From positions 1-64,000 of the forward strand of contig JBBIJY010000006.1 of the NCBI GenBank assembly GCA_037445735.1: 64,000 nt of DNA, read 5' to 3'. This document shows positions 33,001 through 36,000 of the stretch, one piece after another; position 1 is the stretch's first letter; each line of letters starts with the position of its first letter. Position numbers: made by a program. The DNA comes from Armatimonadota bacterium. Its GTDB lineage: Bacteria; Armatimonadota; Fimbriimonadia; Fimbriimonadales; GBS-DC.

Positions 33001-36000
33001 GACGGGCATGGGGCGCACGGGCAAATGGTTCGCCTATCAGTATCTGGACCTTCAGCCCGATGTGGTGATGCTGGCGAAGGGGCTGGGCGGCGGATTCCCG
33101 ATTGGCGCATGCCTGGCACGCGGCGTCGCCGCCGAGCTTCTGCAGGTCGGCGATCACGGCGCCACCTTCGGCGGCAATCCGCTCGCATGCTCCGCCGCGC
33201 TCGCCACCATCGAAATCATCGAGACTGAGGGGCTGTGCGAGCGAGCGTCTCGTGTGGGCAACTACCTGCAGGCACGCCTGCGCGAGCTGCAGGCGCAGGG
33301 CGCACCCATCGCCGAAGTGCGCGGACGCGGACTGATGATCGGCGTCGAACTGACCGAGCCGATTGCCCGTACTATCGTGGACAAAGCCTTCGAAAAACGG
33401 CTCATCATCAACCCGGTGGGCGACCGCATCCTGCGCCTCGTGCCCCCGCTGATTATCGAAGAGCGCGAAGTGGACACCGCCATCGGCGTCCTTCAGCAGG
33501 TGTTTCAGGAGGTGGAAGCGTGAACGCGATTCAGGTAGCGATCCTGCTTTACGCGCTCATCATCATCGCGGGCGGCGTGATGGGCTATGTGAGCGCGAAA
33601 AGCACCCCATCGCTCATCAGCGGGTTGGTCAGCGGCGCGGTGCTGATTGTCGCCCTCGCGCTGTCGATTCGCCAGCCCAAAATCGGGTTCGGGCTGGCGG
33701 CGCTGGTCGCCCTGGCGCTCGGCATCTTCTTCCTGATGCGGTTCCTCCACACGGGCAAATGGATGCCCGCAGGCATCAGCGTGATTCTGAGCGCCGTCAT
33801 GCTGGCGCTGCTGCTGTGGAGCCTGCTGCGACGGTGAGGTGAACGCATGGCGCAGGACAGGATTGTGATTCGGGGCGCACGCGAACACAACCTCAAGAAC
33901 CTGCATCTGACCATCCCGCGCGATCAGCTGGTGGTCATCACGGGCATCTCAGGTTCAGGCAAGTCGACGCTGGCGTTCGACACGCTCTATGCAGAGGGTC
34001 AGCGCCGATATGTGGAGAGCCTCTCGTCCTATGCCCGCCAGTTTCTCGGCGTGATGGACAAGCCCGATGTCGATTCCATCGAGGGGCTATCGCCAGCGGT
34101 GTCGATCGATCAGAAATCGGCGAGCCACAACCCGCGCAGCACGGTGGGCACGGTAACGGAGATTTACGACTATTTGCGCCTGCTGTTCGCCCGCGTCGGA
34201 CGCCCGCACTGCCCGCAGTGTGGCAAGCCCATCACGCGCCAGACGGTGGACAGCATCGTGGACACGGTGATGCGTCTGCCCGAAGGCACGCGCATTCAGG
34301 TGCTGGCGCCCGTCGTGCGCGGACGCAAGGGCGAATACCGCCATGTGTTCGAAGAGATAGCCCGCATGGGCTTCGTGCGCGTGCGCGTGGACGGCACCCT
34401 GTACGAGGTGAACGAGGCGCCGCCGTTAGACCGCTACAAGCAGCACACCATCGAGATTGTGGTGGATCGGCTCGTCGTGCGAGCAGGCGTCGAGTCGCGC
34501 CTGACGGAAGCGGTGGAAACCGCCCTGCGCCTGGCAAAGGGGCTGGTCAACATCCAGATTGTCTCCCTGCCCGACCAGGCAGCCGTCGGCTGAAACCTGC
34601 CACGCATGTCGCGCGGGCGTCAAAATCGGGTCGGTTTGGCGACAGTTTGGCGAGGGCGCACGGGGCTATACTTTGTGCTATGGCAGGCGTGCGAGCAGTG
34701 AGGCAGGAGGAGGCGTTGCGCGAGCCGCGTGAGCGACGACTGCGCAACATTCGGCAACTGACCTTCGGCGGCGAGAACGCCGAAGCCTACTTCTCATTCG
34801 ACGGACGGAAGCTCATCTTTCAAAGCACGCGCCCACCCTTCAAAGCCGACCAGATATTCACGATGAACATCGACGGCACGGATGTGCGACTGGTCTCCAC
34901 AGGCAAGGGGCGCTGTACCTGCGGATTCTGGTCGCCCGACGGCAAAAAGATTCTCTACAGCTCCACCGACTGGATGGGCGACGAGCCGCCGCCACCGCCT
35001 GACCGCACGCACGGCTATGTGTGGGGACTGTTCCCCTATCGGCTCTATATCGCAAACGCCGACGGCAGCCAGCGCGAAGCCATCACCGACGACGACGCCT
35101 ACAACGCTGAAGGCTCGTTCCATCCCGACGGCACCCGCATCCTGTTCACCACCACGCGCTACGGCAACCTTGACCTGTGCGAGTATAACCTGCGCACGCG
35201 CCGGTTCACCCGCCTCACCGATGAGATTGGCTACAACGGCGGCGCGTTCTACTCGTGGGACGGCAAATATATCGTCTATCGCGCTTATCATCCCCGGACA
35301 AAGGAGGAGATTGAGGAGTTTCAGCGGTTGCTGAAGCTGCGTCTCGTGCGCCCCAGCAAGCTGGAGCTGTGGGTGATGACCGCGGACGGGAAACGCAGGT
35401 GGCAGGTGAGCCGTCTGGGCGGAGCGAACTTCGCGCCCTTTATGCGACCGGGCAATAAACAGATTATCTTCTCGTCCAACCATCACGACCCGCGCGGGCG
35501 CGAGTTCGACCTCTTTCTGATTAATCTCGACGGCACGGGGCTGGAGCGCATCACCTACACGCCCCAGTTCGACGGCTTCCCGATGTTCTCGCGCGACGGC
35601 AAAAAGCTGGTGTGGGCGTCGAACCGCAACGCAAAGACGCCCGGCGAGACGAACATCTTTATTGCCGATTTCGTGGAGCCGTAGTCAGGCGGGCAGCAGC
35701 GCGTCGATCTGCTGGGCGAGCTGGAAATCTTTCTCGGTCAGCCCGCCCGCCGAGTGCGTGCTGAGCCGGAGCGTCACCTGCCGATAGCGAATCTCGATAT
35801 CGGGATGGTGGTCCATGCGCTCGGCGAGCAGCCCGACCTGCACTACAAACGCGAGCGCCTCCCGAAAGTTTTTGAAGCGGATGGTGCGCTCGATCTCGTT
35901 GCCGACGCGCTGCCAGTTCGGCACACGCTGCAGCCACTGACCCACTTCCGATTCGGGAATGCGTTCCATCTTATGACCCCTTCTTCGCCTGTTCGAGCTG

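Follow-up and report, generated by a model that had tools for sequence, protein, structure and literature searches.

What becomes of the damage sensor UvrA when its gene stops at about residue 240? The question is raised by the window analyzed here, a stretch of 64,000 nucleotides from one contig of an Armatimonadota bacterium (GCA_037445735.1, our genome G000), in which a gene codes for UvrA residues 1 to about 240 and a short tail, and then ends. UvrA is among the most conserved bacterial repair proteins. We found that in G000 it is encoded by two ORFs on different contigs, an N half in the window and a C half outside it (Table 1). In structure alignments, residues 1-239 of the N half matched chain residues 21-259 of the solved UvrA 9gxk, and residues 10-714 of the C half matched chain residues 259-960. 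Likewise, the NCBIfam model PRK00349 is covered from 2 to 241 by the N half and from 242 to 942 by the C half. Thus no residue of UvrA is lost, as the survey's finding had stated. A tblastn search with the N half on all 59 contigs of this genome, which is 99.2% complete, detected no second uvrA; the only other match reflects the paralogous Walker A of NBD2 within the C half. Both genes are internal to their contigs (109.8 and 98.6 kb) and have their own start and stop, which confirms that uvrA consists here of two unlinked genes.

The new ends are extended by only about 9 residues each in G000, so that some 18 residues were added at the break. The C half alone exceeds the cut-offs for full-length UvrA (PRK00349, 1154.9 against 1147; TIGR00630, 1092.5 against 729.8), while the N half alone is below both. 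Since the C half passes by itself, annotation probably misses the split. The genes uvrB, uvrC and mfd of G000 are whole, and all pass curated cut-offs.

Table 1. The two uvrA genes of G000 and other features of the window (positions are those of the window unless a contig is named).
Feature	Position	Strand	Remarks
Gene for a 1526-aa protein	24704-29284	-	by eye, peptidase-like N-terminal region and FtsX-like permease segments
-10-like box GGTACAAT	32283-32290		ahead of the argD-family gene
argD-family transaminase	32303..33523	+	probable first gene of the N-half operon
TMEM14-family membrane protein gene	33520..33837	+	immediately 5' of the N half
Shine-Dalgarno-like GAGGTGA	33836..33842	+	overlaps the stop of the upstream gene; read from sequence
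uvrA N half	33847..34593	+	248 aa, ATG to TGA; structure alignment and profile match
Content of the N half			N-terminal part of ATP-binding I (proximal Walker A; residues of the dimer interface and of the wedge), the beginning of signature I, one Cys pair (the first) of Zn module 1, and the UvrB-binding domain
Walker A of the proximal ATPase site (G33-S40, K39)	33943..33966	+	K39 numbered as in PMC12796330
C122-x-x-C125, first cysteine pair of Zn module 1	34210..34221	+	presumed module assignment
UvrB-binding domain (Pfam UvrA_inter), residues 132-238	34240..34560	+
Added C-terminal tail SLPDQAAVG and stop	34564..34593	+	family consensus SLPEQA, P242 invariant
TolB-like β-propeller gene	34680..35684	+	unrelated to UvrA; sits where the rest of uvrA would run on
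uvrA C half	contig C10, 55531-57717	-	728 aa; outside the window

The break falls in the turn of a β-hairpin late in the UvrB-binding domain, between its two last strands. Therefore, the last strand, ELLFS in the 3fpn construct of this domain (whose C-terminal end is VVDVIGEGELLFS), is coded by the C half. The N half carries Walker A with K39, residues of the dimer interface (Y55 among them), the wedge residues Y62/F66 and signature I residues 90-119, whose roles are described in PMC12796330. Module II is entirely on the C half, which also carries the insertion domain, the remainder of signature I and, from module I, Walker B and the H-loop. The proximal Walker A is found on one chain and its Walker B, H-loop and signature II on the other, and motif comparison revealed a complete proximal ATPase site in neither half alone. 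A Pfam scan placed UvrA_inter on the N half and UvrA_DNA-bind on the C half, with no extra domain on either and no intein family, in agreement with the survey. In the alignment with class II UvrA2 (2vf7), chain residues 16-129 correspond to N-half residues 6-119, and the match resumes at chain residue 139 with C-half residue 35.

The cut appears to part the two cysteine pairs of Zn module 1. C122 and C125 of the N half are invariant in 22 of 22 aligned sequences, and C23 and C26 of the C half in 24 of 24. The earlier proposal that this zinc site forms in trans is a sound deduction from these four cysteines, and we adopt it as probable; our literature search found no published residue numbering for Zn1. 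In E. coli, the first zinc site was reportedly suggested to be dispensable (by Visse et al. in 1993). If so, a zinc clasp need not hold the UvrA halves together. An AlphaFold model of the N half reproduced the UvrB-binding domain as in 3fpn (rmsd 2.4 Å). Its pLDDT is under 50 over residues 1-119, which may be due as much to a shallow alignment as to the missing partner; a model of the whole UvrA of genome G023, made from single-sequence input, had a mean pLDDT of 33.8 and was of no use.

How widespread is this break? The N half was matched in 23 of the 28 other genomes of the family (f1), the five genomes lacking a match being 69-89% complete. In 22 of these 23 the ORF ends shortly past the break (about 246-267 aa), and G023 has a whole gene, so the near-fixation reported by the survey holds. 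The C half was matched in 26 of the 28 genomes. All C halves except that of G023 start with a homologous new head, consensus IAGEPI.PDTELHFSEHFAC (in G028 the head is broken off by a contig end). In G007, assembled as a single contig, the N half is found at 1,494,589-1,495,329 (-) and the C half at 2,494,509-2,496,644 (+), about 1.0 Mb apart; the similar distance given earlier presumably refers to this genome. The halves of G027 lie only about 5 kb apart on opposite strands, and those of G025, from the same genus, are on separate contigs. The N-half stop is also crossed, without a joint, by a contig (X2) from another sample of the same study, which has 69 differences in 2463 bases. Among the best 120 of 3058 short database proteins, the 17 best matches (P0003-P0019, counted without removing overlap with the family genomes) share the family tail or stop inside it; the others look like truncated whole genes. 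Variation was also seen next to the N half: 279 bases of the TMEM14 gene (window 33542-33822) are absent from contigs of runs X2, X3 and X4, and the upstream sequence of G021 has the same loss.

Outside the family the break was not seen in the genomes and loci compared. All matched genomes of f2 (3/3) and f5 (18/18, a count that takes in the unpublished G054) have uvrA frames longer than 950 aa. The uvrA of G031 (f4) is cut by contig ends, yet reads through both this break site and a second one discussed below. Our phylum sample comprised 301 genomes. Among the best 150 of 397 matches, 11 short frames came from outside the order: five are contig ends by their coordinates, and the other six, once fetched, proved to be four contig ends, a frameshift near residue 750 and a gene aligned in-frame from 3 to 942. 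No unlinked halves were found in 80 loci of other bacteria, a background set of distant UvrAs: 69 are whole, seven run off the locus and four are short by a frameshift or internal stop within one contiguous gene. Two Clostridia loci (L186 at ~4730 and L193 at ~4727) have a common +1 frameshift site in uvrA where the shifted frame reads a CGG codon, and L193 has a further frameshift at another CGG-containing site (~5470); these are possibly cases of recoding at a rare codon.

In the UvrA trees the family forms a fully supported clade. Neither these trees nor rpoB (10 genomes) settle the order of G023, which is whole, and G024, which is split. IQ-TREE joined the two weakly (support 80/74), a grouping that would need two fissions or a reversal, and the AU test did not reject a single split clade (p-AU 0.30). 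G024 has the derived tail and head of the other split genomes and G023 has the ancestral short loop; hence a single fission with G023 outside is the simplest reading, though not a proven one. The survey had described a whole-gene genome, presumably G023, as basal: it does have a whole gene, but the trees do not place it relative to G024.

Both halves are under strong constraint. Pairwise dN/dS (NG86) was calculated for three regions of uvrA and was 0-0.11 in all of them in 12 split pairs, with dS up to 1.8, and 0.008-0.035 in three whole pairs, a fourth whole pair being saturated. Walker A1 is intact in 23/23 sequences, Walker B1 and the H-loop in 26/26, and Walker A2, signature II and Walker B2 also in 26/26; wedge residues Y62/F66 are kept. 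A LAGGE change in signature I was considered as split-related and rejected, because it is also present in 25 of 29 whole relatives. DNA trees of the N and C halves from 23 family genomes recovered the same genus clades and differ in some shallow, unsupported branches.

Each half also has start signals of its own. A -10-like box G(G/T)TA(T/C)A(A/C)T precedes an in-frame start by 4-10 nt in 21 of 26 C-half loci; two others have the box farther upstream and three lack it, one of these at a contig end. In the G000 genome, G(G/T)TA(T/C/G)A(A/C)T boxes occur at 833 sites versus 446 expected and peak 6-10 nt before long ORFs (196 ORFs), which suggests widespread leaderless transcription. The gene order argD-TMEM14-uvrA(N) was found in those loci that were fetched from genera g1, g2 and g6, with other neighbours elsewhere. 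No match to SOS-type consensus patterns, which may not be those of this phylum, was detected upstream of lexA, uvrB, uvrC, argD or either half. The halves thus have neither a common operon nor a detected SOS-type box, a point against the assembly proposed below, for which the amounts of N and C would need matching by some other means.

Several other elements were found around the halves. Back-to-back -10 boxes forming an inverted repeat (L001:9724-9770, which is G000 C10 ~57723-57769) lie in the gap that separates the C-half gene from a Uma2-family gene running divergently, and similar pairs occur in genus g3. A conserved non-coding stretch of about 50 nt (GGCGACGGTTCGATCCACC...) is present upstream of the C half in L037, L039-L042, L046, L048 and L052 (g3), with no tRNA or Rfam match in the three of these loci scanned. 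In some g3 genomes a tRNA ends directly before the N-half start (L021:2249-2322, tRNA-Gly; L012:2252-2322), and L046 has an RNase P RNA 3' of the C half. The gene immediately 5' of the C half in G024 is a 1089-aa ORF (L056:7666-10935, -) without a Pfam match.

How, then, would two separately made chains give a working sensor? Very probably they form one protomer, which dimerizes as (N·C)2 and loads UvrB as usual; co-assembly, this stoichiometry, zinc bridging and repair activity are what we infer from the sequences. An ancestral single-chain class I uvrA would have broken once, early in the family, at the β-hairpin turn. The C part would then have acquired its own promoter and start, the two genes would have drifted apart, and both new ends would have gained short conserved extensions. 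Four parts of the folded protomer would be completed in trans: signature I, Zn module 1, the proximal ATPase site and the final strand of the UvrB-binding domain. The distal ATPase site and Zn modules 2 and 3 would lie within the C half alone. The protomer would be held together by its shared ATP-binding fold, by the zinc site and the donated strand, and perhaps by the new extensions. Nucleotide excision repair would then proceed in the ordinary way, the sensor acting with UvrB, UvrC and Mfd, which are intact.

The halves might instead be functional but partly independent, the N half docking on and off the C half or either half having a separate role, with assembly through the shared zinc site as a control point. 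The unlinked genes with their putative separate promoters and the conserved new tail and head would suit such a scheme, as would the UvrB-binding domain, which is mobile in solved structures, being attached through a flexible Zn-finger region (PMC12796330). However, the cut also divides the ATP-binding I fold, with Walker A on the N chain and Walker B and the H-loop on the C chain, which favours a stable, obligate N·C complex. Furthermore, selection on each region resembles that on whole UvrA, and neither half gained a new domain. We regard partial independence as quite unlikely.

It is very improbable that the halves are rejoined into a single chain at the DNA, RNA or protein level, by inversion or excision, trans-splicing or a split intein. 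In G007 and G027 the halves are on opposite strands and could geometrically be joined by an inversion, across only ~5 kb in G027, but in G025, of the same genus as G027, they are on different contigs. The longest words shared by N 3' and C 5' regions are 6-13 nt long, against control values of 6-10 nt, and they vary across 20 genomes. An Rfam gathering scan of eight loci, which could miss a diverged intron, found no intron family and only RNase P and tRNA. The Pfam scan found no intein domain, no joint is listed at the N-half stop in four DNA runs of one study (one of them possibly the source of the window), and the protein extensions are conserved at both ends. An inversion relic in G027 was considered and dropped, because the genes flanking each half there match those of the halves in G025, where the contigs differ.

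That uvrA is a decaying pseudogene pair, damage sensing having been lost in the family, is still more improbable: an essential-type single-chain enzyme is indeed broken and its parts unlinked, but dN/dS never exceeds 0.11 (dS up to 1.8), no internal stop falls in the catalytic regions of the family matches, all motifs are intact and uvrB, uvrC and mfd are whole. An assembly or binning artefact would come to mind because most of the genomes are fragmented metagenome assemblies, and its probability is negligible given that 22 independent genomes have the same break, with homologous tails, that G007 and G027 each carry the two halves on a single contig, that a second sample crosses the stop and that 17 further database proteins, some of which may overlap with the genomes, end with or inside the same tail.

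A second break is found in the sister family f3. A family-type N half (P0005) comes from a source named 'Armatimonadetes bacterium GBS', and a database fragment labelled Fimbriimonas (P0051) matches f3 genome G146 in its loop region; from such labels we take f1 to be the hot-spring family GBS-DC and f3 to be Fimbriimonadaceae. In f3, 79 of 98 genomes have uvrA split at residue 611/616 (G023 numbering), in the linker between the two ATPase modules, and in 19 it is whole. These counts were made by hand from frame lengths and checked on 40 fetched f3 loci and four unclear cases; in three of the 79 only one side is clear, and the N half of G119 is cut by a contig end. Examples of split and whole loci are L096-L125. 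The halves range from adjacent to dispersed. Split and whole genes are intermingled: at least 10 changes between the two states were counted over 50 non-f1 rows, a set in which whole genes are over-represented. Thus the second split announced by the survey exists, but it is polymorphic, and its fixity and single origin are weaker than stated earlier. In five whole f3 genes the linkers are lysine-rich and 63-72 residues long versus about 36, like the tails of split forms, which suggests re-fusion; others keep the ancestral linker length. A -10 box precedes the C part in 8 of 19 f3 loci, a weak signal with a looser pattern. Each composite ATPase site combines the ATP-binding domain of one module with the signature of the other (PMC12796330), so both sites would form in trans in split f3 UvrA. 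The hairpin loop that is broken in f1 accommodates insertions of as many as 36 additional residues in f3 UvrAs, both whole and 612-split, and is therefore a permissive site. In f3 genera g11 and g36 (e.g. L082, L086, L096), the second pair of Zn module 1 reads CPES or CPVS, with one ligand lost.

Read together, the f1 halves have the domain order of class I UvrA (C. thermocellum 9gxk, G. stearothermophilus 2r6f, M. tuberculosis 3zqj and T. maritima 3pih), with both ATPase sites, three zinc modules and the UvrB-binding and insertion domains. The Walker A/B, Q-loop, H-loop and signature motifs of both ABC modules are intact, and the partners UvrB and UvrC, as well as Mfd, are also coded in G000. 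However, class I UvrA is one polypeptide per protomer and a homodimer, whereas here two polypeptides come from unlinked genes; the split protein is class I in sequence and not a single chain. In class II UvrA2/Ecm16/DrrC (2vf7, 7sh1), too, the region of the UvrB-binding domain and Zn module 1 departs from class I (PMC10192343). There the domain is deleted and the chain is single, while the split UvrA retains both the domain and all four cysteines on a divided chain. Engineered UvrB-binding domains (3fpn, 4dfc) fold alone, and 3ux8 and 6n9l have internal deletions. All are laboratory constructs, and 3fpn includes the last strand, which the natural split puts on the other chain. In 1991, Myles and Sancar reportedly cut E. 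coli UvrA by protease at the central linker, which resembles the f3 break.

Lineage-fixed fissions of other single-chain enzymes are cyanobacterial RpoC1/RpoC2, trypanosomatid topoisomerase IB and split-intein DnaE. These are different proteins. DnaE is religated by its intein, which the UvrA halves lack, and the UvrA cut, instead of separating domains, goes through a metal site and a nucleotide-binding fold. We found no published account of a naturally split UvrA in titles and abstract openings of mainly non-subscription literature. The role and coupling of the two ATPase sites of UvrA are still open according to the Introduction of PMC12796330 ('its exact role is unknown').

The break in f1 is thus an old, selected fission of a core repair ATPase in an unexpected place, and the sister family has an independent and unstable second one. 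It is possible, although unlikely as a whole, that UvrA here is a two-subunit machine. A zinc site between the subunits and a swapped β-strand would clasp an exchangeable sensor/loader, with the dimer hub, base-flipping wedge and UvrB-binding domain, to a motor subunit, and repair could thus be switched by assembly. In the sister family the ABC modules would have been repeatedly parted and re-fused, UvrA there resembling a heterodimeric ABC ATPase, and cheap leaderless promoters may ease such fissions in the order. The two natural split points allow the proximal site, wedge and UvrB-binding domain to be supplied, mutated or labelled apart from the distal module, permit asymmetric UvrA dimers and mark permissive sites for tags. 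Because the split is invisible to annotation pipelines, other cases may be hidden. Finally, two different uvrA fissions within one order make it a test case for gene fission and re-fusion.
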